NCBI GenBank assembly: GCA_020049855.1 | Contig: JAGVLJ010000044.1 | Coordinates: 5,900 to 69,899 of the forward strand | Source: Bacteroidia bacterium | GTDB taxonomy: Bacteria; Bacteroidota; Bacteroidia; UKL13-3 | DNA length: 64,000 nucleotides | Direction: 5' to 3' | Shown here: positions 1,344-19,857 of the stretch, in pieces | Numbering within the stretch: position 1 is the first letter of the stretch | Layout: the number at the start of each line of letters is the position of its first letter | Program-made: the position numbers and the translations under genes | Notes under the pieces: model-generated | What the model was told of the DNA's origin: nothing | Seen by the model: only the letters and a program-made list of their open reading frames with translations | Databases searched by the model: none

Positions 1344-2386
1344 TTCTTCAAATGGGTTATTAACTCGGTGTAAGTGGTTTTTTTATGGAGAAAATAAGCC
1401 AGGGCAATGCTTTTTGGATACATCTCTTTCATTACCACTTCATCGTTTACCTTACGTCTTTGCTGCGCTTCTTTTCGATGCCGTAAAACGAGGCCCAAGT
1501 TAAGTAAAATCCACACATGTGCGGCTATCACCGCCCTAACGCGGGTAAATTGCAGTTTTACAAGCGATACACCGGCTGCCAGCCAGTCGAGCAAGATATG
1601 GATACTTGTTTTGGAGAGTACCTGCGATGCCCCATAATTTTTGATGACCATAAACAGGGAGTTACGATGATTCCAGTACATTTTTTTAAAACTCTGCGAC
1701 TGAATGGTGGCACCTCCATAGTGTGCCACCACGCTGGTCGGCACCACTTTGAGCTGATAGCCTGCCATGAGGATTCGCCAGCACAAATCAATTTCGTCCA
1801 TATGGTGCACAAAGCTGTTGTCGAGCGGGCCGGAATGCGGGAGCACATCGGCTCTCAAAAACATGGCCGCCCCACTTGTCCAGAACACATCGGTGATATC
1901 ATTGTACTGGCCGTTATCGGGCTCAATAGTATCAAACACGCGCCCCCGTAAAAAAGGGTATCCGTACACATCCATTTTACCGCCCGATGCTCCGGCATAT
2001 TCAAACTCCTTTTCATTAAAAAACGAAACCAGTTTGGGTTGCAGGGCACCGATAGAGGGGTCTTTTTCGGCCAGTTCCACAAGCGGTTCAAGCCAGCCCG
2101 AATGTACCCGCACATCGTTGTTGAGGCACAGGTAGTATGTACCGGTGCATACCGAAAAGGCTAGGTTGTAGGCAGCACAATACCCGTTGTTGAGGGGATT
2201 TTTGATGATTCCCACCTGTGGGTATTTTTCGCTTACATACTCTACATCGTTATCGGTAGAGGCGTTATCGAGCAGGTATACTTTAAAGTTGGGGTAGGTA
2301 GACCTGAAAACCGACTGAAAACAATCGTCCAGAAATTTTTTGCCGTTGTAATTTAATACAATGATATCAACCTGCGGATACTTCAT
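1340..2386 (-). CDS. family 2 glycosyltransferase (rhamnosyltransferase-like)
   Basis: 348 aa; GT-A N-terminal region (IIVLNYNG..., DNASTD) with a hydrophobic C-terminal segment. Overlaps rfbC by 4 nt, suggesting an operon. Confidence 0.75.
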   Translation of the reverse strand: MKYPQVDIIVLNYNGKKFLDDCFQSVFRSTYPNFKVYLLDNASTDNDVEYVSEKYPQVGIIKNPLNNGYCAAYNLAFSVCTGTYYLCLNNDVRVHSGWLEPLVELAEKDPSIGALQPKLVSFFNEKEFEYAGASGGKMDVYGYPFLRGRVFDTIEPDNGQYNDITDVFWTSGAAMFLRADVLPHSGPLDNSFVHHMDEIDLCWRILMAGYQLKVVPTSVVAHYGGATIQSQSFKKMYWNHRNSLFMVIKNYGASQVLSKTSIHILLDWLAAGVSLVKLQFTRVRAVIAAHVWILLNLGLVLRHRKEAQQRRKVNDEVVMKEMYPKSIALAYFLHKKTTYTELITHLKK

Positions 2387-3771
2387 TAACCAAGCTTATC
2401 AAAACGCGCCTGAAAAAAACGCAGGTATTTTGGTTCGTACGCCATTTTTAATCCTTTTATTTTATGCCTTTTTTTAAATACATTATATGTCGATTCGGCA
2501 ATTACGTCCATATGGGCTTGAGTATACACCCTGCGAGGGATAGTGAAACGCACAAGCTCCAGTTTGGGGTAATAATTTTCGCCATTTGCTTTTCTTCCGG
2601 CCGAAACAATACCTCGCTCCATGGTACGCACCCCTGAGTCAATATAAATTTCGGCTGCAAGGGTTTGTGCCGGATATTGATCCTGCGTAAGGTGCGGGAG
2701 AAATGCCTTGGCGTCTACAAATATACCATGTCCACCTATAGGTTTCACAATCGGGATGCCGTAATCTAACATTTTATTTCCAAGGTATTCAACCTGTCCC
2801 ACCCTAGCCTGTTGGTGAAAATCATCTAAACTCTCCACAATACCAATGGACATGGCTTCCATATCTCGGCCGGCAAGCCCGCCATATGTATGTAATCCTT
2901 CATAAACCACCACCAGGTTACGGGCATCTTCATATACATCCCATTCGTTGGTGGCTAAAAATCCTCCTATATTTACAAGAGCATCTTTTTTGGCACTCAT
3001 GGTTGCTCCATCGGTTTGCGAACAGATTTCTTTTACAATTTGAGCAATACTTTTATCCTTGTATCCTTTTTCGCGCTGTTGAATAAAGTAAGCATTTTCT
3101 GCTACGCGGGTCATGTCATGAATTATACGTATGCCATTCTTTTTGGCGTACGCTCTCAGTTCTTTCAAATTTTTCATGCTTATGGGTTGACCACCGGCCA
3201 TATTTACATTTGTGGCTATACTTACGTATGGAATTCGTTTGGCTCCATATTTTTTTACTACTTTATCAAGTTTGTCAAGGTCAACATTTCCTTTAAAGGG
3301 ATGGGAATTCAGCGGGTCGTGAGCCTCGTCAATAATAATATCCGTAAAAGTTCCACCTGCTAATTCCTGATGGAGGCGGGTGGTGGTAAAGTACATATTG
3401 CCTGGAATTACATTGCCTTTTTTAATTAATACTTTCGAGAGTATATTTTCGGCTCCACGCCCCTGGTGGGTGGGAATGATGTATTTGTAGCCATAGTATT
3501 TTCTGATGGTTTCTTCCAGATGAAAGAAGTTGCTGCTTCCGGCATAGGCTTCATCGCCCACCATCATCCCGGCCCATTGGCGGTCGCTCATGGCACTGGT
3601 TCCGCTATCTGTAAGCAGGTCAATATATACATCGGCAGATTTGAGCAAAAAGGTGTTGTATCCAGCATCTTTAATTGCTTTTAGGCGTTGAGTCCGGGTG
3701 GTCATTTTTAATAACTCCACCATTTTCATCTTATAGGGCTCGGCCCATGATTTTTTTATTTGTGTTTTCAT
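2386..3771 (-). CDS. beta-eliminating lyase (tryptophanase / tyrosine phenol-lyase family, PLP-dependent)
   Basis: 461 aa; SAKKDALVNIGGFL PLP-lysine motif and overall TnaA/TPL-like sequence. The VNIGGFL variant looks closer to TPL than TnaA, so substrate is not assigned. Confidence 0.8.
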   Translation of the reverse strand: MKTQIKKSWAEPYKMKMVELLKMTTRTQRLKAIKDAGYNTFLLKSADVYIDLLTDSGTSAMSDRQWAGMMVGDEAYAGSSNFFHLEETIRKYYGYKYIIPTHQGRGAENILSKVLIKKGNVIPGNMYFTTTRLHQELAGGTFTDIIIDEAHDPLNSHPFKGNVDLDKLDKVVKKYGAKRIPYVSIATNVNMAGGQPISMKNLKELRAYAKKNGIRIIHDMTRVAENAYFIQQREKGYKDKSIAQIVKEICSQTDGATMSAKKDALVNIGGFLATNEWDVYEDARNLVVVYEGLHTYGGLAGRDMEAMSIGIVESLDDFHQQARVGQVEYLGNKMLDYGIPIVKPIGGHGIFVDAKAFLPHLTQDQYPAQTLAAEIYIDSGVRTMERGIVSAGRKANGENYYPKLELVRFTIPRRVYTQAHMDVIAESTYNVFKKRHKIKGLKMAYEPKYLRFFQARFDKLG

Positions 3772-3844
3772 AGGTTCAAAACTATGGGTTAGGGGTAGAA
3801 GCGACTATGACAATAGTCAATTTGATACCTGATTTTTCTTAGAC

Positions 3845-3918: not shown

Positions 3919-4494
3919 TTATTTTGCAGGAGGTAGCAATACCTGATCAATGATGTGAATTATACCATTGGATGCAGGAACGCTGGCCACAATATGAGCT
4001 CCATTAATGGTAGGTTTGCCATCCACCATTTTTATTTCTGTATTTTTCAAATTCACCATATTCAGTACACGTCCATCGGTTAGATCCTCTGGTTTAAGTG
4101 TACCCACAAAAACATGGTATTCCAAAATATTGCGTAAATCATTTTTAGCTTCGGGTTTTAATAAACCTTCTACGGTGCCGGCTGGTAATTTATCAAAAGC
4201 GGCATTTACGGGCGCAAAAACGGTAAATGGGCCTGCATTGGCCAGCACATCTACATATTCGGCTGCTTTTACTGCTGCTACCAACGTACTGTGGTCTTTT
4301 GAACCAATCGCAACTTTTACAATATCTTTTGCTGATACATCATCCTGAACAGCTGACTGACCTACCTGATTTTCTGCCGTGGCAGTTTCAGCAGTTTTGG
4401 TAGCATCGGCTTCATTTGTTTCGCTTCCACATGAAGAAACGGCAATAGTTCCTGTTAAAAACAGGGCGGCTGTGAGTATTTTTAGTGTTTTCAT
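3919..4494 (-). CDS. fasciclin (FAS1) domain lipoprotein
   Basis: 191 aa; signal peptide with lipobox Cys (VSSCGS) and a C-terminal FAS1-like region (ILEYHV..., GIIHIIDQVLLP). Confidence 0.7.
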   Translation of the reverse strand: MKTLKILTAALFLTGTIAVSSCGSETNEADATKTAETATAENQVGQSAVQDDVSAKDIVKVAIGSKDHSTLVAAVKAAEYVDVLANAGPFTVFAPVNAAFDKLPAGTVEGLLKPEAKNDLRNILEYHVFVGTLKPEDLTDGRVLNMVNLKNTEIKMVDGKPTINGAHIVASVPASNGIIHIIDQVLLPPAK

Positions 4495-4516
4495 TTTACG
4501 GTGGCTTTATTAAGTT

Positions 4517-4524
4517 CAAAGTTA
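4517..4524 (-). promoter_or_regulatory. candidate Bacteroidetes -7 promoter element (TAnnTTTG) for the fasciclin gene
   Basis: Minus strand reads TAACTTTG about 28 nt upstream of the ATG at 4494. This matches the Bacteroidetes sigma-A -7 consensus TAnnTTTG. Confidence 0.3.
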
Positions 4525-5235
4525 CTTGCGGGTGGTTTAATAAAATTGATGCAAGTCAATAAAAAAGCAGATTTTTCTCAATATAATGTATTCAGGGGTA
4601 CTTCTAAAGAATGTAATTTTATTGAAATCAAGTTAGGTGCACACTGGTAATGCTCTCGAATTTAAATTTCCTTTTATGCTTTAATCTCATCCTTAATTGA
4701 GTTTGTATCCTGTAATATGGTTCTGTATAAAAAAAGGAGCCATATTTGTTCAGTATGGCGTCTTCACTCGGAAACAATCATTTCCTGATTTTATCACCAG
4801 TGGGGTATAAGAAGGTATTTGGTGTGTGGAATTTAGCACAATAAACTGGTAAAGGTAAAACGGACATCTAACTTTGCGCTATGGGGCTTATTAAAATAAA
4901 CTTTTGCGCTACTTGTGGCTGTTCTCAAATCAAATTGCTTCAGAATATATTGGTTGGTCACTGTACTAGCGGTTGAGAAGCGAATTGTGTTTTTGAATTT
5001 TATGCCAATTACTTGTCAGTATTTTAGTTTGCTCTTTGAGGTACGGAATATTGTTTTTGCTTCTTCTTGTTTTTCTATCCATTTTGTTAACTAATATCTA
5101 TTTTATATAACATTTTTTGGCAACGAATTTTTTTGTTCGCAAATAGTTTTTGGAAATATTATTCAAGATGGAGTGCCTATCAAGTGAAATGATAGCTAGT
5201 GACCCCACGACACAATGTGGAGCTGCTTCTCCTTG

Positions 5236-6003
5236 CTAAAGATTTTTACGGTTAAAAACTTTTATTGAATACAACAAAGGAGCGATAATCCAGATAAACA
5301 TGATGCAACAGGTATAAAATATACCCATTGAATTGCCAAAAAAAGATTTAAACAGGGCTCCGGTGTAACCCATTAAGGCGGAAATGTCTAATTTTAGCAT
5401 AATTATGATACGACCCAAATCAATAGGATTAAGGGCAACTATGGGAATCATAGCTTGTTCAAGCGGATAATCACTGAAGGTAAAAAGAAGGGCAAGCATT
5501 AAGGCATCGTAAATAATGGAAAAATAAAACCAAATCATAAGGGCGATGCCTATTCCTTTTGCCTTATCGCGTGTAATTACTGATGAGAGAAAAGCCAGTG
5601 AAATAAATACCAGAGTAAGGAGGATTCCTGATAGAATAAGCACAAATCCTGTGGCTGTGGCATCAAAAAGAATTATGGGAATACCGATTCCGATAAAAAA
5701 GGCGAAGGAAAGGGAAAGGGCAACGCCTATGTATTCTCCCAGCAAGATGGTGCTTCGTTTTAATGGTTGGGCAACCAGTAATTCTATAAATTCGTACGAA
5801 TTAAAAAAATACGTTGTAGCAAACACAATGCTGATAAGCGGAACCATAATCATCACAATGCTCATTAAACTTATAATGGCTTTTGAGGGGTCTTCTTCCA
5901 TATTGAATAAAGTAGAAGCAATAAGGAACAGGAAAAGAGTATAAGCAATAAGTACGCGGTTGCGTACAATATCATAAATTACGTATTTGGTTACTTTAAT
6001 CAT
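5236..6003 (-). CDS. nosY: ABC-2 type transporter permease NosY
   Basis: 255 aa polytopic membrane protein immediately downstream of nosF in the nos cluster. Overlaps nosF by 8 nt. Confidence 0.75.
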   Translation of the reverse strand: MIKVTKYVIYDIVRNRVLIAYTLFLFLIASTLFNMEEDPSKAIISLMSIVMIMVPLISIVFATTYFFNSYEFIELLVAQPLKRSTILLGEYIGVALSLSFAFFIGIGIPIILFDATATGFVLILSGILLTLVFISLAFLSSVITRDKAKGIGIALMIWFYFSIIYDALMLALLFTFSDYPLEQAMIPIVALNPIDLGRIIIMLKLDISALMGYTGALFKSFFGNSMGIFYTCCIMFIWIIAPLLYSIKVFNRKNL

Positions 6004-6709
6004 TGATTTCTGATTTCATAAGTTTGGCAATGGCCTTGCCTAAACGTTCTTCTCCAGTTTCCTCTTTTATTTCTTTGATTGTTTTATCAAAGGCTATCTC
6101 GCCATCCATCATGTACACAATTCGGTCAGCCAGTTCATCTACTTCACTCATAATATGCGAGGTGATAATGACACATTTGCCTTTTGATTTTGCTTCTAAA
6201 ATATGTTGTTTCAAAATTTCGGAGGCCAGAGGGTCTAAGCCTGCAGTTGGCTCATCTAACACTAATATATCTGGATTGAATAAAAAGGCAAGCGCAGCAC
6301 TTACCTTCTGTCTGGTTCCGCCTGAAAGGGTGCGCATGGTTTTATTAAATAAAGAAGGTATTTTGTACGAATTCAATACCGATTCATCAGGCTTTATGTC
6401 ACTTTTTCTTAGGTCGCGCATCATGGAGAATACCTGACCAATTTTCATATTATCGGGGTAGCGGCCAATTTGAGGCATATATCCAATTTGTGACCTGTAT
6501 TGCCAATCGCCAGAAATTGATTTACCATTCAGGATTATTTCTCCCGAATCCGGAATAATCATGCCCAGAATTGATTTAATTAATGTAGTTTTACCCGATC
6601 CGTTTGGCCCTATTACCGATACCACTTCGCCCTTATGAAAACAAATACTTACCCCTTTTAAAACGCGGAGTTTGCCGAATTTTTTTTGCAGAGCTTTTAC
6701 TTCAATCAT
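5996..6709 (-). CDS. nosF: ABC transporter ATP-binding protein NosF
   Basis: 237 aa; Walker A GPNGSGKTT, signature LSGGTRQK, Walker B ILVLDEPTAGLD. Overlaps nosD by 4 nt. Confidence 0.85.
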   Translation of the reverse strand: MIEVKALQKKFGKLRVLKGVSICFHKGEVVSVIGPNGSGKTTLIKSILGMIIPDSGEIILNGKSISGDWQYRSQIGYMPQIGRYPDNMKIGQVFSMMRDLRKSDIKPDESVLNSYKIPSLFNKTMRTLSGGTRQKVSAALAFLFNPDILVLDEPTAGLDPLASEILKQHILEAKSKGKCVIITSHIMSEVDELADRIVYMMDGEIAFDKTIKEIKEETGEERLGKAIAKLMKSEIND

Positions 6710-7944
6710 CGTGTTGGGGATTTCATTAAAGGGGAGTCGTCTTTTAGTTGGTCAGGTGTAAGGGAGGGTATATTTTTTTCAGCTTTATCCAGCAAGTCTA
6801 CCGCAAAACTGCGTAGCAGCATTACCGCATAAGGAATTTGTTCTATAATGGATGCATACAAACTTACAGGACGATAGGGAATATCGCCTACTCCGTCTCT
6901 GTCTAGGTCGTATCCGGTGTACTTATCCCAGTAATTGTGTTTAAAATAATTCAACGAAATTGTTCCGTTTGTTGAAACATCAAAAGTATTACCATTGAAT
7001 TTATTTCGAATAAAAGAATCCATTTCGCAATTGGCAAGTAGTTTTAAAGCCCATCCGTTGTTTTGAAAAGTGTTTCCCACTACCTGAATGCGCGAAGATC
7101 CTTCCAGATACAAAGCTGTTGTGTTATTTAAAAAAGTATTTCCGGTGATATAACTGTTCCCAATATCTTTCAGTAAAACTCCATAGGAGGAACTGCCCCA
7201 ATTATCGGCAAAAATATTTCCTTCCATTCGTATTCCCTTAGTGTACATAACGGCTACTCCTGTACCATTATTTCTGAAAATATTGTTTGTGTATGTATCG
7301 TTGTCTGAAAACATAAAGTGAAGACCATACCTGAAATTCTTTTCACTGATGTTTTGCGAAATATGGCAAAACCGGGCAAATTCAAAGTAAATTCCGTCAC
7401 GGTGACCACTGATTTTATTTTTTCTAATGGTGACAAAATTGCATTGCCATAAATGAATTCCGTTGCCTGAACGTGCGTCATCAGGGGCACTACCTATAAG
7501 GGTATTGTTTTCTATAAGGGAAGAATCAATAGCCGAAAGGTGAAAACCAAAGTAGGTATTGATGAGGATGTTGTTTTTTAAAGTAAGGTGTCGGGCTTTC
7601 ATAGCTTGTATGCCGGCATAATCTGTCATGCTGGCTCTTGCCGAGTTTTTAATAGTGATACCTTCAATGGTTACGTGAGATGCGGTTATGGTTATGCCGA
7701 AATCTTTCATTTGCACATCAAGCACTGGCTCGTTTTCTCCTTTAAATACAATTGATTTATTGATGTGAAGGTTTTTGACAATATAGATGCCTTTGTGCAA
7801 CATGACGGTATCTCCATTATGTGCAGATATAATTGCAGGTTGTGGATGTTTAAAGCGAAAGGCAGCACCTACATCAATGGTTTTTGCCCTTAAGAGATGG
7901 CTGCTTAAAAGTACAATTAAAAATAGAAAAGGCAATCGGGGCAT
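6706..7944 (-). CDS. nosD: periplasmic copper-binding protein NosD (right-handed beta-helix)
   Basis: 412 aa; signal peptide and repeated parallel beta-helix segments (GIxxxxS/NNxI). Lies between nosL and nosF. Confidence 0.8.
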   Translation of the reverse strand: MPRLPFLFLIVLLSSHLLRAKTIDVGAAFRFKHPQPAIISAHNGDTVMLHKGIYIVKNLHINKSIVFKGENEPVLDVQMKDFGITITASHVTIEGITIKNSARASMTDYAGIQAMKARHLTLKNNILINTYFGFHLSAIDSSLIENNTLIGSAPDDARSGNGIHLWQCNFVTIRKNKISGHRDGIYFEFARFCHISQNISEKNFRYGLHFMFSDNDTYTNNIFRNNGTGVAVMYTKGIRMEGNIFADNWGSSSYGVLLKDIGNSYITGNTFLNNTTALYLEGSSRIQVVGNTFQNNGWALKLLANCEMDSFIRNKFNGNTFDVSTNGTISLNYFKHNYWDKYTGYDLDRDGVGDIPYRPVSLYASIIEQIPYAVMLLRSFAVDLLDKAEKNIPSLTPDQLKDDSPLMKSPTR

Positions 7945-7956
7945 GCGAGAGAGGAG

Positions 7957-8400
7957 TTAATGAATAACGGCAAAAATAGAGTCCCAGTGAATGATGTCTC
8001 CTCCTGTATTTTTCTGTATTTTTCTAGCTTCTTCTTCTTTGGCAAATGAGGCTAAATTTCCACCCATTGGGCTTTGTATGTTTTTTCCATGAAGATAGAA
8101 TGCGCTTTTTGCATCAATCAAAGTGGAGGGGTTGGCATAATCTGTAACTACCATAAACCTGTAAATATTTTCGGGAGTTGTATTTTTTTTAAGGTAGTTT
8201 ATCAGGCATTCGTCCGAGTCAAAGAGAAAAGTTCTTCCTTTCGAGGTTACAAGTTGCGCCCCGAATTTTGTATCCATAATGGTCATTTTACAATGTGTAC
8301 ACTGATCTTTTCCGTAGTTAATCGGGACGGGTTTTACGGAGCAGGAAGAAAAGAATATGGAGAGAAGAAGTACAGCTATTACTGAAAGTATTTGTTTCAT
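7957..8400 (-). CDS. nosL: copper chaperone lipoprotein NosL
   Basis: 147 aa; lipoprotein signal (FFSSCSV); NosL-like size and position in the nos cluster. Confidence 0.65.
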   Translation of the reverse strand: MKQILSVIAVLLLSIFFSSCSVKPVPINYGKDQCTHCKMTIMDTKFGAQLVTSKGRTFLFDSDECLINYLKKNTTPENIYRFMVVTDYANPSTLIDAKSAFYLHGKNIQSPMGGNLASFAKEEEARKIQKNTGGDIIHWDSIFAVIH

Positions 8401-8404
8401 AAGG

Positions 8405-8983
8405 TCATGTTTTTTTACTGAATAAAAAGTGTTCTATCCATAGAACTCCTGAAGAAATAAGGGCTGGAATAATAATAAAATATCCTCCGGTATCGGGTAG
8501 GGAGCCTGCAAGAAAATTAAGTAGCTCTTTATAGCCGATAAGGGGCGGCTGATAAGTCATTCCTGGTATTTTTATGGCAGCAGTAGGGTCAAGGTTATGC
8601 CCGTATTTATATTCCCAAAGCCAAAAATCAACGGAAGCAACGGCAGCAACAAGTATAAGAAAAGCGACCCATGCGAATAATGCTTTTCGGGTATTGAGGG
8701 CCGCAGCTAAAACTCCCCATATTATCATTATGCCCAGAAGTATCGGGAGTATTTTAAATTCGGGGAAATCTTCCACGTGAATCGTTTGCATTCCAATATA
8801 ATGGTTTAGGTTGTTAATCGAATTGATATCACCTTTGATACTATTTACCCAAATTTCCATTCTTAGCCCTTCAGGATATTGCGGAGCTTCCAGTTCAATT
8901 TTCCAAACGGAGGTAAAATAGGCTACGCCCATACTTAAGGCACATAGCAAAATAATAAGCCGGGAAGATGTTTTTAATTTCAT
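8405..8983 (-). CDS. small polytopic membrane protein, NosB-like (clade II nos cluster component)
   Basis: 192 aa with about 4 transmembrane segments directly downstream of nosZ. This position corresponds to nosB in clade II clusters. Confidence 0.4.
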   Translation of the reverse strand: MKLKTSSRLIILLCALSMGVAYFTSVWKIELEAPQYPEGLRMEIWVNSIKGDINSINNLNHYIGMQTIHVEDFPEFKILPILLGIMIIWGVLAAALNTRKALFAWVAFLILVAAVASVDFWLWEYKYGHNLDPTAAIKIPGMTYQPPLIGYKELLNFLAGSLPDTGGYFIIIPALISSGVLWIEHFLFSKKT

Positions 8984-9074
8984 GATGTGAGCAAATAAGG
9001 TGAAGCCGAACAGGATACAAAAGTAAAGGAAAAAAGAAAGGGGAGGAAATTCCTCCCCTGACTTTCAGTATTAG

Positions 9075-11102
9075 CTATTTAGCCGCTGCCGTATTACCGG
9101 TTGAGAAGCTCAGAGGAGTAGAAGATCCCGCGGGAGATACCCTGATATATCCTTGCATTTCCTGATGAAGAGCCGAGCAGAAGTCGGTGCAATACATTGG
9201 AAATACTCCGGGGGCTTTAGGTGTCCATTTCAGAGTTTGTGTTTCGCCCGGCATAACCAGCAATTCCGAATTACCGGCACCTTTTACTGCAAATCCGTGT
9301 GGTACATCCCAGTCTTGTTCCAGATTGGTTACGTGAAAATAAACATCATCACCTACTTTAACACCTTCAATATTGTCGGGAGTAAAGTGTGAACGGATGG
9401 CAGTAATGTAAACATGCACTTCGTTTCCTTTACGTACTACCTTTGCATCTTTTTCATTGCCGGCAAAGTAAGGATGTTTGTTTTCTTCCAGCTTATACAC
9501 CTTGCGTTGGTTTTTGGTCACCAAATCAGCCTGAATCATTTGTGCGTAGTGTGGTTCGCCAATGGTAGGGAAGTCAAGCAACAATTTCATTTTTTCTCCG
9601 GAGATATCAATTAACTGGGCTGACTGGCAAAGTTCTGGTCCCGTAGGCAGGTAACGGTCTTTGGTGATTTTATTTAAAGCTACCAGGTATTTTCCGTAAG
9701 GTTGTTTCGAGTCGCCCTGTGCCACACAAAGGTGACCAATGGAATAATAGGTAGGAATGCGGTCAACCACTTCACGTGTTTCTACGTTCCATTTTACAAC
9801 TTCAGACGAAACGAAGAAGGAAGTATACGCAAAACCGTTCTGGTCAAATTCAGTATGTAAGGGGCCTAAACCCGGTTTTTGTACTTCACCGGCCAGTACT
9901 GCATCATATTTTAGAACATTGATACCATCAAACTCGCCTTCAAATTGCTTGGCTTCAATAGCAGCAATCATTTTTTTGTAGGAGAACACAGGAATCATAG
10001 CGGCCAGTTTTCCTGAAGCTACAATGTATTCACCTGTTGGGCTTACATCGCATCCGTGAGGCGATTTAGGGCAAGGCATGTAGTAGCAAATATCTTTCAG
10101 GGCGCGTGCATCCAAAGTCATCACTTCTTTCATAAGTTCGGAGGTAGCCATGTGTTTTGATTCATCATACACATTATGGTAGTAGTTGGCAGGTTTTTTT
10201 ACACCTTTACCCTGTGCCAGGTATTCTTCGGCTTTTTTCCAGTTCACAGCCATAATAAAGTCCTTGTCTTTTTGCGAAGCATTTACTTCAAGCAGGGTAT
10301 TGGCTTGTTCGGAATTATAACTTGAGAAAAACAACCAGCCATGGGAAACACCTTTTCCGGCACGTGCCAGGTCATAATCAATGGCCGGAACATCCAATTG
10401 AAATTCCAGATTCATGTGTCCGCTTTCTTTATTTACCTTGATAAAGTTCACCACACCTTTAAAATTTTGTTTATATGTATTGATGGCTACTTCAGTTTCA
10501 TCAGGAGGAACACTGAAGCGGGAAGCACCTACCACATACTCGGTATTTTCAGTACAATAAGGTGAAGCATGATTTCCCCCTGTATTAGGCAGTTCAATTA
10601 TTTCGGTCGTTTTAAAAGTGGTAAGATCAATGCGAGCAATACGGGGAGTGTTATTGGCATTAATAAACAGCCATCTTCCGTCATCATTGCCGGCAGTTTT
10701 AGAAAGTACCGGGTGGTGACTGTCATCCCATGGAATAAAACCTTTGGTAGTATTCAGCATTGGCTTTGTTTCTTCCGAATAGCCCCATGCATTTTCGGGA
10801 TTTACAGAAAATACTGGTATTTGCCGAAGAAGTCTTCCTGATGGTATACCATATACGGCTACCTGTCCACTAAATCCTCCCGAAGCAAACATATATACTT
10901 CATCCAACTTACCAGGTGCTACATATACTTTGCTTGCTGCATCACCTTGTACCACATTGGTTGCTTTTTTTGGCTTGCAACTATAAAAGCCTGCAATCAC
11001 TAAAACCATAAAGCCGGTTCGGACTGCTGTTTTAACTATTATTTTCATAATTGAATAATTAAGTAAGTTATTATAAAGATCTTGCTTATTTGGCTCCGTC
11101 AT
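9075..11102 (-). CDS. nosZ: nitrous-oxide reductase NosZ (Sec-type, clade II)
   Basis: 675 aa; 7-bladed propeller region plus C-terminal CuA cupredoxin motif (H...C..C...H..M: HVTNLEQ...CTDFCSALHQEM). The signal peptide has no twin-arginine motif. An alternative start at MKIIVKT (about 11048) gives a lipoprotein-like signal. Confidence 0.9.
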   Translation of the reverse strand: MTEPNKQDLYNNLLNYSIMKIIVKTAVRTGFMVLVIAGFYSCKPKKATNVVQGDAASKVYVAPGKLDEVYMFASGGFSGQVAVYGIPSGRLLRQIPVFSVNPENAWGYSEETKPMLNTTKGFIPWDDSHHPVLSKTAGNDDGRWLFINANNTPRIARIDLTTFKTTEIIELPNTGGNHASPYCTENTEYVVGASRFSVPPDETEVAINTYKQNFKGVVNFIKVNKESGHMNLEFQLDVPAIDYDLARAGKGVSHGWLFFSSYNSEQANTLLEVNASQKDKDFIMAVNWKKAEEYLAQGKGVKKPANYYHNVYDESKHMATSELMKEVMTLDARALKDICYYMPCPKSPHGCDVSPTGEYIVASGKLAAMIPVFSYKKMIAAIEAKQFEGEFDGINVLKYDAVLAGEVQKPGLGPLHTEFDQNGFAYTSFFVSSEVVKWNVETREVVDRIPTYYSIGHLCVAQGDSKQPYGKYLVALNKITKDRYLPTGPELCQSAQLIDISGEKMKLLLDFPTIGEPHYAQMIQADLVTKNQRKVYKLEENKHPYFAGNEKDAKVVRKGNEVHVYITAIRSHFTPDNIEGVKVGDDVYFHVTNLEQDWDVPHGFAVKGAGNSELLVMPGETQTLKWTPKAPGVFPMYCTDFCSALHQEMQGYIRVSPAGSSTPLSFSTGNTAAAK

Positions 11103-11559
11103 TTTGACGCAGGTAATTCAGAATGGATAATGCCTCATCTTCTGCCACATTCTGGTTGGTCATCTGGGTAAGGTGTTCGGCCAGCAACGCTTGAGCAGTA
11201 GGGTCTTTTTGTGTCATTTCTACCGGATTGGTAATCATGTTCAAAATCCACTGTGGTTTTCTGCGTTCTGTTACGCCTTTAAGACCCGGACCAACTATTT
11301 TGTCGCCAGTTAATTTGTGGCAAGCTGAACATTTGGCTTCAAATAAAGTCTTGCCTTTTTCGGCTAAGGCAGCATCAAAAGGGGCAACTTCTTTTCCGGC
11401 AAAGTTTCCAATCCCTTCTCCGTTGTCGGCAGGGGTGGCAGGTGTGGTGGGCGATTGCTCAGCAGGTTTGTCTGATGAGCCACAATTACTAAATACGAAA
11501 GCTAATGCTAATACTGCAGTTACTGATACTGCTTTTCTGTAAATTTTTGTCATTATCAA
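11086..11559 (-). CDS. mono-heme c-type cytochrome lipoprotein (putative electron donor to NosZ)
   Basis: 157 aa; lipobox (FSNCGS), single CSACH heme-binding motif and downstream Met (ITNPVEM). Overlaps the nosZ start. Confidence 0.75.
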   Translation of the reverse strand: MIMTKIYRKAVSVTAVLALAFVFSNCGSSDKPAEQSPTTPATPADNGEGIGNFAGKEVAPFDAALAEKGKTLFEAKCSACHKLTGDKIVGPGLKGVTERRKPQWILNMITNPVEMTQKDPTAQALLAEHLTQMTNQNVAEDEALSILNYLRQNDGAK

Positions 11560-11628
11560 CTTAATTTTATTGCGCTAAATTAACATATTATTTGTTAACA
11601 AAAGTACCTTGGGCTGTAGGGTGGCTTC

Positions 11629-11642
11629 TTGATATGAATCAG
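11629..11642. promoter_or_regulatory. FNR/CRP-family box (TTGAT-N4-ATCAg) in the divergent cytochrome c-nosZ / crp-fnr promoter region
   Basis: TTGATatgaATCAG matches 9 of 10 positions of the FNR consensus TTGAT-N4-ATCAA. It is centred about 76 bp upstream of the cytochrome c ATG and about 67 bp upstream of the regulator ATG. Confidence 0.45.
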
Positions 11643-11702
11643 AGTTGAGTGTGATTTTTATCAGTTTTTTTTGTTTTGGGATAAAACCCTTAGATTTACC
11701 GA

Positions 11703-12407
11703 ATGGCATTGAATAATAAACTGGATTGTACAAATTGCCAAACCCTCGGGCTTTCTGTGTTTTGCACCTTAACCCGTGAAGAAGTTGAGCAATTGAACAA
11801 TTATAAATCTTCATTTCACGTTAAAAAGGGGCAGTTAATCTTTTATGAAGAAAGTGAGCCCCCGGGCTTATATTGTGTACATCGCGGGAAGGTAAAGGTA
11901 TTTAAAACAACAAATGAAGGGAATATTCAAATATTGAGGCTGGCGAAAGACGGAGATATTATTGGTTATCGTTCTTTATTGGCCGGGGAGCAATACCGTG
12001 CTGCAGCCGAAGCGATTGAAGACTCGCAAATATGCCTAATTCCCAAACATTATATTTTTGAATTGCTGAATAAAAACATTCATTTATCGCTTAAAATAAT
12101 GGAAAATTTTGCCCGCGAATTGAAAACGGCAGAAAAGAAGAATGTTGATTTATTGCATAAAACAAGCAAGGAACGTCTTGCCGAGTCGTTGTTATTGCTT
12201 AGAGATACATTTGGGGTAAATGAACGAGGTTTTATCAATGTAGTTCTTAACAGGGAAGATATTGCCAATATTACCGGAATGGCCACCGAAACAGTGGTAA
12301 GATGTCTTCGAGAGTGGAATGAGGTTGGGGTAATTGATCTTGATAAAAAACTTATTAAAATTACAAATACTAAACAGTTGCTGGATATTGCCAACTTGAA
12401 GGACTGA
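11703..12407 (+). CDS. Crp/Fnr family transcriptional regulator (FNR-like; N-terminal Cys cluster)
   Basis: 234 aa; cNMP-binding-like beta-roll plus C-terminal HTH (NREDIANITGMATETVVRCLRE). Cys9/Cys12/Cys21 and Cys111 mimic the FNR [4Fe-4S] ligand pattern. Confidence 0.8.
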   Translation: MALNNKLDCTNCQTLGLSVFCTLTREEVEQLNNYKSSFHVKKGQLIFYEESEPPGLYCVHRGKVKVFKTTNEGNIQILRLAKDGDIIGYRSLLAGEQYRAAAEAIEDSQICLIPKHYIFELLNKNIHLSLKIMENFARELKTAEKKNVDLLHKTSKERLAESLLLLRDTFGVNERGFINVVLNREDIANITGMATETVVRCLREWNEVGVIDLDKKLIKITNTKQLLDIANLKD

Positions 12408-12417
12408 TTTCTATCAG
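12404..12417. promoter_or_regulatory. FNR-like box (cTGAT-N4-ATCAg) upstream of norC
   Basis: CTGATttctATCAG overlaps the regulator's stop codon and is centred about 67 bp upstream of the norC ATG. Confidence 0.4.
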
Positions 12418-12477
12418 ATATATTAATGACGATAGTCAATTTTTATCCGTTAAACCGATGATATTTTTGCCCATTGT

Positions 12478-12900
12478 ATGAGATTTGTAGTTAAAATTAG
12501 TATCCTGCTGGTTTTGGTGTGTTCTTTTGCGATGTACAGCGTTCACTTATACACCGATACTAAATTATTAAAAAAATCAACTCGGCTCACCGATGCAGCT
12601 TTTGAGGGGAAAATGATTTGGCAACAAAATAATTGTCAGTCGTGTCATCAGTTTTACGGACTGGGCGGATATCTTGGACCAGATCTCACCAACGTGTACT
12701 CAACAAAGGATAAAGGTACCGGGTATATTGGAATTATGGTGCAAAACGGAAGTATTACCATGCCGGCATACAAAATGAGTAAAACAGAAATTGAAAAGGT
12801 TACGGAGTTTTTGCGTTGTATGGATGAAACCGGCAAAGCTGATCCAAGAACTTTTAAAGCAACCGAGACCGGTAATATTACGCGTGAAGATGAACAATAA
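12478..12900 (+). CDS. norC: nitric-oxide reductase small subunit NorC-like (membrane-anchored mono-heme cytochrome c)
   Basis: 140 aa; N-terminal TM anchor. The segment MIWQQNNCQSCHQFYGLGGYLGPDLTNVYS closely resembles the conserved NorC heme-binding region, with a downstream Met (ITMPAY). Confidence 0.75.
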   Translation: MRFVVKISILLVLVCSFAMYSVHLYTDTKLLKKSTRLTDAAFEGKMIWQQNNCQSCHQFYGLGGYLGPDLTNVYSTKDKGTGYIGIMVQNGSITMPAYKMSKTEIEKVTEFLRCMDETGKADPRTFKATETGNITREDEQ

Positions 12901-14266
12901 ATCAACATTCTTTTTTGCCGATCGCTTATTTTTAGCTACTGCACTTTTAATGCTAATTGGAGTAGTTATTTATGGCTCATTGGCATCGGTTTACTACTTA
13001 GCTCCAGGCTTCTTGAAAAATTACCTTGGTTTCTCGCAGTTACGACCGTTGCATGTTACATCGGTTGTGTTCTGGATTCTGATGGCGGCAAGTGGAGGGG
13101 TCTATCACTCATTTCGAGAAGTAAAAATAAATCGCCTCATTCACACTCTTGCTCTTGCACATTACACCATATGGTTTGTAGCCCTGGTGGCTATTTTTAT
13201 GTCTTATTATAACGGTATTTTTGGCGGAAGGGAGTATTGGGAATTTCCGCCTAAGTATGCAGGGTTTATTGCTGCAGGCTGGTTCTTTTTTTTAGTTAGT
13301 TACCTGATTGTATATAGGTCATTGAAGCAATGGAGTGTTTATCATTGGATGTGGCTTACCGGAATTGTTTGCTTTCTGTTTACTTTTTTTGAAAATTACC
13401 TATGGATTTTTCCTTTCGTAAATAGGGATGCCGTTAAAGATCTTACTATTCAATGGAAGTCGAACGGATCTTTGGTAGGTTCATGGAATCAATTGGTGTA
13501 TGGGCTTGCATTTTACCTGATGGAAAAAATTTCGGGAGATAAACAAACTGCACGCTCCGGAATTTCATTTGCTATGTATTTTCTGGGGTTGTTTAATTTA
13601 ATGTTTAACTGGGGGCATCATATCTATACCTTACCCACGGCTTCCTACGTTAGGATCATTTCTTACGCGGTAAGCATGACTGAATGGATTATTTTCCTGC
13701 GGATTATTTTTTTATGGAAAAAAACCAATGCAGTCGCTGGAAAACCTGCTATGCGAATTTCTTTCGATTTTTTAAATTCATCAGATCACTGGATATTGTT
13801 GAACTTGTTTCTCGCATTACTCATGTCAATCCCGGCAATTAATATTTATACGCACGGCACACATGTTACGGTTGCTCATGCTATGGGAACCACTATAGGA
13901 ATTAATACCCTTATTCTTTTAGGTGTATCAGCTGAGATTATGAAGGGATCTTGCAATGAAACCAATTCGTATCCGGTTTTGAAAAGATGGCTAACCGTTA
14001 TGAATATTAGTTTAGGCGCAATGCTCCTCTCCCTATTAGTAGTTGGAGTGTTAAAAGGGGTTTGGCAAATGAATCCCAATCAGGGCTCATTTCAGCAAAT
14101 GATGCTGGGTTTTAGGCCTTATTTTATCCTCATGTTTTGTTCCGGAATTGGGTTGCTTGTTGCAGTAGCAGCAATAAGTGTAGTGATATTGCGAAGTTTT
14201 ATTTTGTGCTATACCAGAAAAAAGATGCCCGGCTATGGGTTTGGTTCTTTAATGAAAGAAGGATGA
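12890..14266 (+). CDS. norB: heme-copper-oxidase-family membrane protein, NorB-like NO reductase large subunit (NnrS-like not excluded)
   Basis: About 458 aa and 12 predicted TM helices; HH pair (GHHIY), H-x2-H-x4-H (HGTHVTVAH) and an N-terminal His. The preferred start ATG at 12890 overlaps the norC stop. The ORF track's 12791 start would overlap norC by 110 nt. Confidence 0.65.
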   Translation: MNNKSTFFFADRLFLATALLMLIGVVIYGSLASVYYLAPGFLKNYLGFSQLRPLHVTSVVFWILMAASGGVYHSFREVKINRLIHTLALAHYTIWFVALVAIFMSYYNGIFGGREYWEFPPKYAGFIAAGWFFFLVSYLIVYRSLKQWSVYHWMWLTGIVCFLFTFFENYLWIFPFVNRDAVKDLTIQWKSNGSLVGSWNQLVYGLAFYLMEKISGDKQTARSGISFAMYFLGLFNLMFNWGHHIYTLPTASYVRIISYAVSMTEWIIFLRIIFLWKKTNAVAGKPAMRISFDFLNSSDHWILLNLFLALLMSIPAINIYTHGTHVTVAHAMGTTIGINTLILLGVSAEIMKGSCNETNSYPVLKRWLTVMNISLGAMLLSLLVVGVLKGVWQMNPNQGSFQQMMLGFRPYFILMFCSGIGLLVAVAAISVVILRSFILCYTRKKMPGYGFGSLMKEG

Positions 14267-14321
14267 GGAAGCAATTAATTAATTTCATCCTTTGTCGTCA
14301 AGTTTTAAAAGTAAGTAAATT

Positions 14322-16118
14322 ATGAGTATTTCCCGCGTTCACCCCTTTCATATTCCGGTTATGGGTCTTTCATTTACTGTTGATACGCCTGTTAAGGTAG
14401 CTCGTTTCGGCATTTCTTCAGTAGTCTCTGTTATAGAAGATGAATTGGTAGAAAAAATGCGCAAGTATTATTGCGAGTCGCTTCAGCTGCCATACAAGCA
14501 TATTACCAAAACAGAACATGATTACCGGGCTAAGCGTATAACCGAATACCTAAATTTGCTCGATTTGATTGTAAAGAATCAATTGGCTATTCTAAAAAAT
14601 GAGCGGTTTGAAGAGGGGGCCGAAATTGTAAAATATTTCGAGTTGCTTCCTGAAAATGCTCCGTTAAAGCAAGTGTATCTTAAAATGAAACTTTCGTCAG
14701 GCTATGTAAAGCAAAAACTACAGGAGGAATTGCGTGCCGGTATTGTATCTGGGGATATTGATGTGAATATAATGACGAAGGTGGATAAAACAAACTACAC
14801 TCCTACCGGAGAACCTCTTTCGGTTGAGTTCAACGATGCCCTAGCAGCTTTACGTGGATTTGCTCAAAGTAACGTATCATCTTCTGTTGTATTTTCGGCT
14901 GGGTTAAATCCTAGGCTATACAGTTATTGCGAAACGTTCAATGATTTTTTCCCCGACAAAAACGGAGCCGTTAAGAAAAGAATTACCATCAAAGTTAGTG
15001 ATTATCGTTCAGCCCTTATACAGGGAAAATTCCTTGCAAAAAAAGGTCTTTGGGTTTCTGAATTTAGAATTGAATCAGGATTGAACTGCGGGGGGCATGC
15101 GTTCGCTACCGATGGGCTATTACTTGGGCCGGTTATGGAAGAGTTTAAAGCGAAGCGGGAGGAGTTGACAAATACGCTGTTTGAATTATGCAACCAAACA
15201 CTTAAAGAAAAGGGGCGTGATGCGTTTCCTTATGTTCCAAAACTTAGTATTACGGTTCAGGGCGGAGTAGGAACCTTTAACGAGCAACAATTTTTTCTCA
15301 GCTATTACAAAATGGATAGCATTGGCTGGGGCAGCCCGTTTTTACTGGTGCCTGAAGTTACTAATGTAGATTATGCTACCCTTAGTGAATTGGCCACTGC
15401 CAAACCCGATGATTATTATTTGAGCGATGCCTCTCCACTGGGTGTGCCATTTAATAATTTCAAAAAAAGTAGTTCAGAGGTGCAGCGTAAAGCACGTATC
15501 GAAAAACACCGAGCAGGTAGCCCGTGTTATTTAAAATTTCTTTCCTTTAATACAGAATTTACAGAAAAACCCATTTGTGTAGCTTCGCGGGAATATCAGA
15601 ATTTAAAAATTAAGCAACTTAAAACAAGCGGTGCTGATGAAAAGACCGTACAGCGTGAAATTGATTTGGTAACGGAGAAAGATTGTTTGTGTGAGGGGTT
15701 AAGCACATCAGTATTTATTGAAAAACATATTCCACACCCTCATAAACTTGCTGCTGTTACCATTTGCCCGGGTCCTAATCTTGCTTATTTTTCCGGGGTA
15801 TTCACGTTGGTGCAGATGGCCGGACATATTTATGGAAGAGGAAATTTACTCAACAGTGTGCCACGGTCCCATGTTTTTGTAAATGAATTGCGACTTTATG
15901 TAGATTACCTGAAAAGGGAAATTAGTAAAAACATTCTGGCACTTAGCAGCAAGAAAGAAGAATATTTTAATACATTTCGCAGCAACCTGCTTTCGGGTAT
16001 CAACTATTATATTAGCCTTCTTGATAAAATGCAGTTAGAAAAGGAATCATTAATCAACCAAATGAAAACCGAATTTGCCGAACTTGAACAACAGTTGGCT
16101 GGAATGATCACAGCTTAA
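14322..16118 (+). CDS. conserved hypothetical 598-aa soluble protein in the norCB operon (possible FMN/TIM-barrel-like motifs)
   Basis: Long uninterrupted ORF 55 bp after norB and 9 bp before the queD-like gene. Weak motif similarity only (VARFGIS, GLNCGGHAF, QGGVGT); no confident family assignment. Confidence 0.5.
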   Translation: MSISRVHPFHIPVMGLSFTVDTPVKVARFGISSVVSVIEDELVEKMRKYYCESLQLPYKHITKTEHDYRAKRITEYLNLLDLIVKNQLAILKNERFEEGAEIVKYFELLPENAPLKQVYLKMKLSSGYVKQKLQEELRAGIVSGDIDVNIMTKVDKTNYTPTGEPLSVEFNDALAALRGFAQSNVSSSVVFSAGLNPRLYSYCETFNDFFPDKNGAVKKRITIKVSDYRSALIQGKFLAKKGLWVSEFRIESGLNCGGHAFATDGLLLGPVMEEFKAKREELTNTLFELCNQTLKEKGRDAFPYVPKLSITVQGGVGTFNEQQFFLSYYKMDSIGWGSPFLLVPEVTNVDYATLSELATAKPDDYYLSDASPLGVPFNNFKKSSSEVQRKARIEKHRAGSPCYLKFLSFNTEFTEKPICVASREYQNLKIKQLKTSGADEKTVQREIDLVTEKDCLCEGLSTSVFIEKHIPHPHKLAAVTICPGPNLAYFSGVFTLVQMAGHIYGRGNLLNSVPRSHVFVNELRLYVDYLKREISKNILALSSKKEEYFNTFRSNLLSGINYYISLLDKMQLEKESLINQMKTEFAELEQQLAGMITA

Positions 16119-16127
16119 TACCTGCTT

Positions 16128-16550
16128 ATGCTCACTATTAATAAGATTTTCCATTTTGAAGCTGCCCACGCTATTGCAGGTTATCCGGGTTTATGCAGGC
16201 ATATTCACGGTCACCGTTACGAATTGCACGTTGGGGTTACTACCCATCAACTTGCCGATGGGATGATTATTGATTTGAAATTATTAAAAAAGTTGGTAAA
16301 TGAATTGGTGATTGATAAATTTGATCATGCTCTTATTGTGTCCGAAGCTGGGGCGGAGAAAAATAAAATGGTTAGCTCAGCCGCAGATCAGCGGTTGATT
16401 GTATTGAAATCAGAACCTACTGTGGAGTACCTTATTTTGGAAATAAAAAGCAGAATTGAACAAAATATACCCGCAAACATCCGGTTGATGAAGCTAAAGC
16501 TATACGAAACCCGCGATTCGTATGCCGAGTGGAATGCATCGGTTGGGTGA
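16128..16550 (+). CDS. 6-carboxytetrahydropterin synthase QueD / 6-pyruvoyl-tetrahydropterin synthase family
   Basis: 140 aa; FHFEAAH... and C-x3-HGH (CRHIHGH) zinc-binding signature of the QueD/PTPS fold. Confidence 0.7.
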   Translation: MLTINKIFHFEAAHAIAGYPGLCRHIHGHRYELHVGVTTHQLADGMIIDLKLLKKLVNELVIDKFDHALIVSEAGAEKNKMVSSAADQRLIVLKSEPTVEYLILEIKSRIEQNIPANIRLMKLKLYETRDSYAEWNASVG

Positions 16551-18802: not shown

Positions 18803-19786
18803 TCAGGTAAATTCCATCATTTTTTTTATGGGCTGGTAGGCTTTATGAATTAATTCAGTGCTTAAATTCACCTCAAAATTATCCATTTTATCTACTCCTA
18901 TATGTTCCAGGATTTCCAGTGTTTTCAGCATGGATATTTTTTTCATGTGCGGGCATTTAATGCAGGGAGTTATGAATTCTTTTTCCTGATACATTGTTTT
19001 AAGAGTTGAACCCAAATCACACTCAGAGGCAAGTATAAAGCTGGTACACGAACTTTCTCCAACGTAACGAATAATATCATTAGTGCTGCCAAGTACACCG
19101 CCTGCGTTGGTTAGTGAATCCGATACCGTGGTATCCGGAACTTCCCAGTGTAATAGAAACTCCGAATTGGGGTATTGCATACGCAGCCCCTTGGCCATAT
19201 CGGAAGTAAATTGCTCGTGAACTTCGCATTTTCCATTCCATAGTATAAGGTCTTTTCCGGTTTCTTCTTTTACCTGCTTTGCTAAATTTTGTCCCATGTA
19301 TAAATCAGGAACAAAAATTATTTCTGGTGAATCTATCGAGCGGATGATGGCTAATGCATTTCTTGAGGTGCAACATACATCACAGGCGGCTTTAGTCTCT
19401 GCATAGGTATTGATATAAGCTACCACCGGAGTGTCGGGATATTTTGCCTTTAAGGCATTCACATCTGCTGCTGTAATGCTTGATGCCAGTGAACATCCAG
19501 CTTCCTTGTCAGGTATATAAACATGTTTATCCGGGCTTAAAATTTTGGCTGTTTCTGCCATAAAATAAACTCCGCAAAATATTATATGATCTGCTGTTGT
19601 TTTTGCTGCTTCCACACTTAGGCCTAATGAATCTCCCACAAAGTCTGCAATGCCCCCGGCCGTTTCCTTCAATTGTAAATCGGGGCTCATGTAGTAATGA
19701 GAAAGTATAACAGCATTCTTTTCTTTCTTTAGTTTGTTGATTCGGAGAATTAGTTCTTTTCCCGATATTATTGGTTCTTGTATCAT
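18803..19786 (-). CDS. nadA: quinolinate synthase
   Basis: 327 aa; NadA family (ILSHYYM..., conserved Cys ligands). 1 bp gap to nadB. Confidence 0.9.
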   Translation of the reverse strand: MIQEPIISGKELILRINKLKKEKNAVILSHYYMSPDLQLKETAGGIADFVGDSLGLSVEAAKTTADHIIFCGVYFMAETAKILSPDKHVYIPDKEAGCSLASSITAADVNALKAKYPDTPVVAYINTYAETKAACDVCCTSRNALAIIRSIDSPEIIFVPDLYMGQNLAKQVKEETGKDLILWNGKCEVHEQFTSDMAKGLRMQYPNSEFLLHWEVPDTTVSDSLTNAGGVLGSTNDIIRYVGESSCTSFILASECDLGSTLKTMYQEKEFITPCIKCPHMKKISMLKTLEILEHIGVDKMDNFEVNLSTELIHKAYQPIKKMMEFT

Positions 19787-19843
19787 GCGTGCAAAGATCT
19801 CCGCAATGGCAAATCAATACCATGATCTTAATCATTAATGAAG

Positions 19844-19857
19844 TTGATGATTATCAA
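19844..19857. promoter_or_regulatory. perfect FNR consensus box TTGAT-N4-ATCAA in the divergent nadA / peroxidase-pair promoter region
   Basis: TTGATgattATCAA matches 10 of 10. It is centred about 56 bp upstream of the 19907 ATG and about 64 bp upstream of the nadA ATG. Confidence 0.5.

Follow-up and report, generated by a model that had tools for sequence, protein, structure and literature searches.

How Bacteroidota switch on the reduction of nitrous oxide (N2O) is the question raised by a locus in the genome of a Bacteroidia bacterium. Organisms with a clade II N2O reductase (NosZ), many of them Bacteroidota, are regarded as important sinks of this greenhouse gas, and the literature says little about how their nos genes are switched on. 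The window analyzed here, a 64,000-nt stretch of contig JAGVLJ010000044.1, contains a nos operon on the minus strand (5236..11553), which starts with the ATG of a lipoprotein cytochrome c gene at 11553 and continues with clade II nosZ, a gene for a 192-amino acid (aa) protein that has no match in Pfam or NCBIfam, nosL, nosD, nosF, and nosY. In a domain scan, the genes behind nosZ were recognized as encoding NosL, NosD, an ABC ATPase, and an ABC-2 permease. NosZ scored 934 bits against the model for the Sec-dependent enzyme (TIGR04246, cut-off 625), and no NosR-type gene turned up among the open reading frames (ORFs) of the window that were scanned between 777 and 21691. The cluster is thus a clade II (Sec-type) nos cluster, as a preliminary description made from the letters of the DNA had proposed, including its remark on the missing nosR. 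A 149-bp intergenic region (11554-11702) separates the operon from a Crp/Fnr-family regulator gene on the plus strand (11703..12407). Coordinates and genes agree with the earlier account, and this region controls two divergent units, a clade II nos operon of Bacteroidota and the FNR-like regulator gene next to it.

The control region carries, at 11629-11642, the box TTGATatgaATCAG / TTGATATGAATCAG, which reads CTGATTCATATCAA on the minus strand towards nos and matches the FNR consensus TTGAT-N4-ATCAA at 9 of 10 positions. A single match of this quality is not rare in 64 kb, and related loci were needed to decide. When one mismatch is allowed, the consensus occurs 12 times in the window (5.1 expected; none of 100 shuffles reached 12), and approximately 0.01 such matches are expected per 149-bp region. 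Orthologous loci were gathered by means of the regulator protein, and these yielded, together with the window, 10 distinct divergent regions (window, L001, L003, L083, L085, L086, L087, L089, L090, and L097). In every locus, with regulator identities of 53-93%, the regulator gene is divergent from cytochrome c-nosZ, and a TTGAY-N4-RTCAA box was found in all 10 regions. The box is TTGATATGAATCAG in the window and in L001, and TTGACACAAGTCAA in two loci, while TTGACATGTATCAA, TTGATGGCTCTCAA, TTGATGTGCATCAA, TTGACATAAGTCAA, TTGATATGTGTCAA, and TTGACGTGGGTCAA were found in one region each. When the 10 regions were aligned on the strand that reads towards nos, the TGA and TCAA of the box and a TTTG downstream of it were the sole invariant columns, and the remainder had diverged. 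Because the box is conserved in every orthologous locus, it exceeds chance and is a real cis-element, and the earlier proposal of a genuine 9/10 FNR box, placed to control nos, is upheld.

The invariant TTTG belongs to the octamer TACTTTTG (11606..11599, minus strand), which is a perfect TAnnTTTG, the -7 box of Bacteroidota sigma-A promoters. The spacer between the end of the FNR-type box and TTTG is 27 nt long in L083 and 26 nt long in each of the other nine loci, and its sequence has diverged. The same distances stand out in the wider regulator family. When the distance between TGAY-N4-RTCA and the next TTTG was tallied over ~1 Mb of family loci, 26 nt (42 cases) and 27 nt (16 cases) formed a sharp peak above a background of ~3. 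Genome-wide mapping of start sites in Flavobacterium psychrophilum has shown that the -7 box spans positions -12 to -5 (PMC9723704). With the G of TTTG at -5, and with 36.5 nt between this G and the box centre in 9 of the 10 orthologues, the FNR-type box would therefore be centred at approximately -41.5, the canonical position of FNR and CRP at class II promoters. We infer from the same comparison that transcription starts at about 11594, which would give the mRNA a 5' untranslated region of ~41 nt. A class II promoter also has a weak or absent upstream (-35/-33) element. Since the ten-region alignment contains no invariant column between the box and the -7 element (only two columns reach 90%) and no conserved TTG, a -33 element appears to be absent, as expected for an activator-dependent promoter. 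A sigma-70 promoter scan of the intergenic region gave no site, a type of scan that is uninformative for Bacteroidota promoters.

To find further sites of this kind, the window was scanned for a composite of a box with at least 9 of 10 matches followed, after 25-27 nt, by TAnnTT[TC]G, and the expectation was taken from Markov simulations. This degenerate consensus with its spacing rule was used in place of a position weight matrix, because a matrix built from the eight orthologous boxes outside the window proved overfitted on the N4 positions and penalized genuine sites, giving the perfect mbnP box a score of 7.5 and the NorCB-like box a score of 3.5. Five composite sites were found, where 0.05 were expected. 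All lie between 3.8 and 20 kb, and each is located 6-46 nt 5' of a correctly oriented ATG, namely that of the nos operon, a cytochrome c / NorB-like operon, mbnP-mbnH, a fasciclin gene, and a beta-eliminating lyase gene. The frequency of 9/10 matches in the window would by itself leave room for the explanation that the box at 11629-11642 is a chance match in AT-rich intergenic DNA. However, box and spacing have been kept in 10 loci despite diverged flanks, the spacing peaks at 26 nt across the loci of the regulator family, and the composite sites exceed expectation, by which a chance match is effectively refuted already.

The box at 11629-11642 very probably activates the nos operon, judging from its conservation and position, and it is likely that the adjacent FNR-like regulator is the protein that acts through it. 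In the mechanism that we propose, the regulator would be a homodimeric Crp/Fnr protein, in which four conserved cysteines probably hold an iron-sulfur cluster, and low oxygen, possibly also nitric oxide (NO), would render it competent to bind DNA. One dimer would occupy the box at -41.5, probably with a second dimer at -63.5, and the bound regulator would act as a class II activator, bringing sigma-A RNA polymerase to a promoter whose -7 box is good and which has no -33 element. Along with nos, this would switch on four other units (mbnPH, the NorB-like operon, and the genes for the lyase and the fasciclin-domain protein), and the five would form a small local regulon around N2O and NO reduction and copper supply. 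The view that regulator and site form the local control point is reasonable in this light, with the regulator/nos pairing kept in more than 10 distinct loci.

The site at -63.5 is a second, weaker box, GTGATTTTTATCAG (11651..11664, minus strand), with 8 of 10 matches and the core TGAT-N4-ATCA, 22 bp from the first. The preliminary description mentioned neither this box nor the -7 element and the fixed spacing that predicts -41.5. It is identical in L001, L002, and L091. Ten copies of the core TGAY-N4-RTCA were counted in the window where 3.6 were expected (none of 100 shuffles reached 10), and 8 of these 10 cores lie in the neighbourhood of nos. Pairs exactly 22 bp apart are present at three promoters (11630/11652, 12405/12427, and 19823/19845). 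In all three, the box nearer to the promoter has the spacing of 26 nt, and therefore its partner would be centred at -63.5. In all fetched loci (~1 Mb), 18 pairs of core boxes within 60 nt of each other were found, a number that includes near-duplicate loci of the window's own lineage. Sixteen of them are 22 bp apart, and the others 21 and 23 bp. Paired cores outside the window are present in L010, L013, L014, L040, L051, L063, L076, L080, and L097, and independent pairs come from Chitinophaga, Sphingobacteriaceae, Chitinophagales, and Ignavibacteria metagenome-assembled genomes (MAGs). Several of these independent pairs lie 26 nt from a TAnnTTTG box, ahead of hemerythrin-like genes, a regulator gene, and a ccoNO cbb3 oxidase gene. 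The most fitting reading of the box at 11651-11664 is an auxiliary site in the upstream part of the nos promoter, and the recurrence of the pairs suggests, as a family-wide rule, that two dimers bind to the same side of the DNA helix, one at -41.5 and one at -63.5. We also considered whether the second box could occupy position -41.5 of a promoter of the regulator gene itself. This was rejected, as its distance to the sole TAnnTTTG-like box on that side (TAGATTTA, 11691-11698) is 30 nt, not 26 nt.

The divergent arrangement raises the possibility that the box at 11629-11642 is instead an operator for autoregulation or repression of the regulator gene, or that it represses nos. In L086, L087, and L090, the box lies 14 nt from a regulator-side TAnnTTTG, which would centre it at about -29.5, a repressing position, and the fnr gene of E. 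coli is known to be autorepressed. However, this minor 14-nt spacing class is heterogeneous, and orthologues differ in their spacing on the regulator side (24.5, 32.5, or 37.5 nt from the box centre), in contrast to the fixed spacing on the nos side. The module of a box at 26 nt is, moreover, found before genes without a divergent partner (the fasciclin gene, the lyase gene, and the NorCB-like operon), and the missing -33 element is typical of activator-dependent promoters. We consider a repressing role very improbable, and activation of nos remains the preferred explanation.

The regulator is a 234-aa protein with cysteines at positions 9, 12, 21, 58, 111, and 201. It belongs to the Crp/Fnr superfamily, with scores of 72 bits for PF00027 and 50 bits for PF13545, both above their cut-offs, corresponding to a cNMP-binding-type beta-roll and a Crp-type helix-turn-helix. 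Residues 7-230 align with FNR of Aliivibrio fischeri (E = 3e-22), against only E = 8e-8 for DNR of P. aeruginosa (3dkw). With this stronger similarity to FNR and a conserved cysteine set, the protein does not have the profile of a DNR/NnrR-type regulator and is, by sequence comparison, closer to FNR than to DNR. The preliminary description had pointed to an FNR-like pattern formed by C9, C12, C21, and C111. Three of these four withstand comparison, since C9, C12, and C111 align with C20, C23, and C122 of FNR and are invariant in an alignment of 40 sequences, in which C58 is at least 90% conserved. In a census of ~80 homologues with E values below 1e-50, C9, C12, C58, and C111 occur together in 74 of 80 proteins, whereas a C21-like cysteine is missing (G, S, or other) in 20 of 80. 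Four of these 20 have an extra cysteine four residues before C9, like C16 of FNR, and the remaining 16 are left with just the four conserved ones. The lack of conservation in orthologues, which had been named beforehand as an outcome that would count against an FNR-type sensor, thus applies to C21, and the well-conserved C58 had gone unmentioned, as had C201. C58 could be the fourth ligand in place of the C29 position of FNR. It is located in strand 3 of the beta-roll, which in a jelly-roll should pair with strand 8, the strand bearing C111, if the fold is a guide. In the recognition helix, E196-T-V-V-R200, E196 and R200 are conserved, and E-T-V-V-R is invariant in the nos-linked subgroup. The retained E and R, combined with V in place of S, would fit a TGA-centred half-site with a relaxed outer position.

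In several respects the system resembles FNR of E. coli and Aliivibrio, a class II activator at TTGAT-N4-ATCAA sites centred at -41.5. The protein has the Crp/Fnr fold, the C-X2-C motif with a central cysteine, and the conserved E and R, and its palindromic TTGA-N6-TCAA site lies at a predicted -41.5 without an upstream hexamer. Other observations weigh against the proposed mechanism, or at least against a canonical FNR. The best NCBIfam model is indeed Fnr (NF008365), but with 101 bits the protein falls short of the cut-off of 228 bits for FNR sensu stricto. The third N-terminal cysteine is spaced X8 instead of X5 and is dispensable, with C58 conserved instead, and the E-x-x-S-R motif is lacking, S being replaced by V or I across the regulator family. 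The half-site is TTGAY and not TTGAT, the window's own box is mismatched in its distal half-site (CTGAT), and the promoter has a TAnnTTTG -7 box and not a -10 box. The value of -41.5 itself depends on a -7 box position carried over from Flavobacterium. On the side of the regulator gene, the spacing is not conserved, and the window offers no class II register for the regulator's own gene. Related MAGs contain two or three paralogues, often in tandem, and either an NO sensor or an oxygen sensor would suit the predicted targets (a NorB-like oxidase, joined in orthologous loci by ScdA/RIC). Further differences from FNR are the recurrent second site exactly 22 bp upstream and the character of the regulator, which is local, beside nos, and not global.

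The presence of paralogues bears on the identity of the DNA-binding protein. The boxes might be genuine and yet be bound by a paralogue encoded elsewhere, for example a global FNR-type protein, with the adjacent regulator recognizing something else. Several paralogues are indeed found in related MAGs, the -63.5 boxes (NTGAT-N4-ATCAN) differ slightly from those at -41.5, ATGAT-N4-ATCAT boxes occur in multi-paralogue loci, and it is well established that the sites of FNR, DNR, and FixK cannot be distinguished by sequence. On the other hand, regulator gene and box travel together in every orthologous locus down to 53% identity, the E196-T-V-V-R200 helix is invariant wherever the regulator is linked to nos, and no further Crp/Fnr gene is present in the 64-kb window. 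We consider a distant paralogue rather improbable as the main binding protein and regard the adjacent regulator as the better candidate.

A further question is which signal the regulator perceives. The preliminary description had favoured an oxygen-sensing [4Fe-4S] protein over a Dnr/NnrR-type NO sensor, but the regulator might mainly sense NO or nitrosative stress, by means of a nitrosylated iron-sulfur cluster or another cofactor, and so function like DNR, NnrR, or Nss. This would suit a local regulator that is always found beside nos and that has a NorB-like haem-copper oxidase among its predicted targets, and the nos-linked sub-branch has NO-related neighbours. It would also suit a possible ScdA/RIC target in orthologous loci, where a perfect box, TTGACNCAGGTCAA, precedes a gene for a protein of 241-242 aa with 26-nt spacing (L006 7458-7471, L096 5093-5106, and L099 4971-4984). 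These genes, identified by position, sit where an iron-centre-repair gene (ScdA/hemerythrin) flanks the regulator in other orthologous loci, and if confirmed as such, they would link the regulon to nitrosative stress. In addition, clade II nos genes of Wolinella and Nitrosophilus have been placed under Nss/Dnr-type Crp/Fnr proteins with TTGA-N6-TCAA sites (PMC11539149). Against a dedicated NO sensor stand the conserved cysteines that align with the cluster ligands of FNR and a similarity to FNR that is far above that to DNR. Members of the wider regulator family (~45% identity) lie beside hemerythrin genes and, in one locus, beside FixG/FixH genes, neighbours that would fit a low-oxygen response, and the paired boxes with the 26-nt module ahead of ccoNO point in the same direction. 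Genes for cbb3 oxidases are classic targets of FNR and FixK. The two readings are not exclusive, as FNR-type clusters respond to both gases. We judge a mainly NO-sensing regulator somewhat unlikely; the proposed mechanism has low oxygen as its signal, possibly combined with NO, although the predicted targets would fit either gas.

From these data a broader picture can be sketched, though only tentatively and with more doubt than confidence. The regulators may form an FNR-like lineage of their own in Bacteroidota and Ignavibacteriota, often filed under a mistaken MalR or PUL-regulator name, with C9, C12, C111, and C58 as ligands and an optional third N-terminal cysteine, with operators 22 bp apart at -41.5 and -63.5, and with -7 promoters that lack a -33 element. 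The nos-linked sub-branch would then be an on/off switch for clade II N2O reduction in these abundant N2O consumers, and it would co-regulate NO reduction and copper acquisition by MbnPH.

An FNR-type switch on a respiratory operon is of the expected kind and as such only a modest surprise; the conservation of C58 and the pairing of sites at 22 bp are mildly unusual. In the literature that we searched, no direct description of FNR-type regulation of nos in Bacteroidota was found, and the switch has not yet been described in this phylum there. The only regulators of clade II nos in that literature are the Nss/Dnr-type proteins of Campylobacterota. The Nss regulators of Wolinella succinogenes and a Crp/Fnr candidate of Nitrosophilus labii have been proposed to control clade II nosZ through TTGA-N6-TCAA, in organisms without nosR (PMC11539149). 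In this respect they are like the system presented here. They differ in that they are described as Dnr/NssR-like and as responding to nitrate, NO, or N2O, whereas the present regulator has FNR-type cysteines and belongs to Bacteroidota, a distinction that is based on descriptions. To our knowledge, Nss proteins lack an FNR-type cysteine cluster. For the clade I systems of Proteobacteria, FNR-type boxes for FnrP, NNR, DNR, and FixK2 upstream of nos are well known, and they couple N2O reduction to low oxygen and/or NO (PMC5582078, PMC4771820). Those systems also use NosR, unlike the one described here, in which the regulator gene is divergent from nos and belongs to a separate Bacteroidota/Ignavibacteriota lineage. 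Clade II nos clusters have further been reported with Rrf2 regulators and occasionally an NnrR-like gene alongside (metagenome paper PMC6264515).

Another Crp/Fnr-family protein of Bacteroidota is MalR of Bacteroides (BT4338), and the homologues P0008, P0018, P0027, P0039, and P0097 carry the JGI name 'polysaccharide utilization system transcription regulator', which refers to the MalR orthology group. A 2021 MAG study found no evidence of CRP/FNR control of denitrification in its MAGs of Ignavibacteria, Flavobacteriales, and Saprospiraceae, and CRP/FNR homologues in those MAGs were treated as MalR-like carbon sensors (PMC8510549). Unlike MalR, the family studied here is found in the context of nos, NorB-like oxidase, cbb3 oxidase, hemerythrin, and FixGH genes and has a conserved cysteine set. 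Such cysteines speak for a sensor of redox state or of a gas, and the MalR label therefore seems mistaken for the FNR-like regulator family. Conservation of the box, the constant distance that separates it from the -7 element, and the few predicted targets lead to a testable hypothesis on the oxygen or NO conditions that permit N2O consumption, one that can be scanned for in MAGs and metatranscriptomes.

The other predicted targets of the window are as follows. Downstream of the regulator gene, on the plus strand, a box pair (12404..12439) precedes the cytochrome c / NorB-like operon. The first box of this pair, CTGATTTCTATCAG (12404-12417), overlaps the stop codon of the regulator gene, and the second, ATGACGATAGTCAA (12426-12439), is located 26 nt from the TTTG of TATTTTTG (12462-12469). 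The genes that follow (12478-16550) encode a small cytochrome c and subunit I of a haem-copper oxidase, then a conserved protein of 598 aa in which Pfam recognizes no domain, and a member of the 6-pyruvoyl-tetrahydropterin synthase (PTPS) family, and the same set is present in L001 and L002. The sole solved relative of the oxidase subunit, a distant one, is NorB of cNOR (4xyd, E = 1e-6), and the subunit scores below the cut-off of every NCBIfam family, so this set may represent an uncharacterized NOR-like enzyme. A second box pair on the plus strand (19822..19857) consists of ATGATCTTAATCAT (19822-19835) and the perfect box TTGATGATTATCAA (19844-19857), with 26 nt to the TTCG of TAACTTCG (19880-19887). 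It precedes mbnP-mbnH (19907-21691), which encode an MbnP-domain protein and a di-haem CCP/MauG peroxidase. MbnP/MauG genes also adjoin the regulator in L083, L084, L004, and L095. It thus appears that copper acquisition and NosZ, a copper enzyme, are under joint regulation, which links NosZ expression to a copper-acquisition operon.

Two further boxes are on the minus strand. The box TTGACTTGCATCAA (4546..4559) lies 25 nt from the TTTG of TAACTTTG (4524..4517) and precedes the fasciclin-domain gene (4494..3919), and the box TTGACTATTGTCAT (3807..3820) lies 26 nt from the TTTG of TAGTTTTG (3784..3777) and precedes the beta-eliminating lyase gene (3771..2386). In orthologous loci, genes of all four kinds (fasciclin, MbnP/MauG, lyase, and NorB-like) recur beside nos, the fasciclin gene within or beside the nos cluster. 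The lyase belongs to the tryptophanase / tyrosine phenol-lyase family. The -7 box of its gene ends 6 nt before the ATG, so that the predicted mRNA would be nearly leaderless, and a homologue adjoins cytochrome c / oxidase genes in L085.

The first box of the mbnP pair, ATGATCTTAATCAT, is also 26 nt away from a TTTG (GATCTTTG) towards nadA-nadB on the minus strand (window 19787-19835; nadA 19786..18803). Each box of this pair might serve one of two divergent promoters, and a leaderless nadA mRNA would be predicted. On the nadA side, the TA of the -7 box is lacking, which makes this a weak candidate.

The control region contains one more feature that had been singled out, the perfect 10-bp palindrome TTGTTAACAA at 11592..11601, which overlaps the -7 box and the region of the predicted start site. 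It is present where it had been reported, but it does not qualify as an operator. The window contains 62 perfect palindromes of 10 bp, compared with 80 +/- 9 in simulated sequences, which amounts to an average of ~0.14 per 149 bp and more in DNA with 31% GC. Moreover, the palindrome is gone in L001, where the regulator is 93% identical and TTTGTTTGCGG replaces TTTGTTAACAA. Only its TTTTG survives there, because this is part of the -7 promoter element. As it occurs at chance frequency and is not conserved, the palindrome was rejected as an operator and is a chance feature.

A gap of ~740 bp between nosY and the fasciclin gene (4495-5235) has no ORF of at least 60 aa. An Rfam scan of the whole window gave no match, and hence no known RNA element was found for either the control region or this gap. 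Besides the promoter box of the fasciclin gene (4546-4559), the gap holds another 9/10 box, TTTATTGAAATCAA (4618-4631). Finally, comparison of the control region with L001 showed that the 60 bp proximal to the regulator gene (11643-11702, aligned with 2738-2797 of L001) are identical at 58 of 60 positions, and the 22-nt spacer on the nos side at 14 of 22. The T-run and the GGGATAAAACCC segment 5' of the regulator gene may constitute a further constrained element, either the gene's own promoter or a leader.

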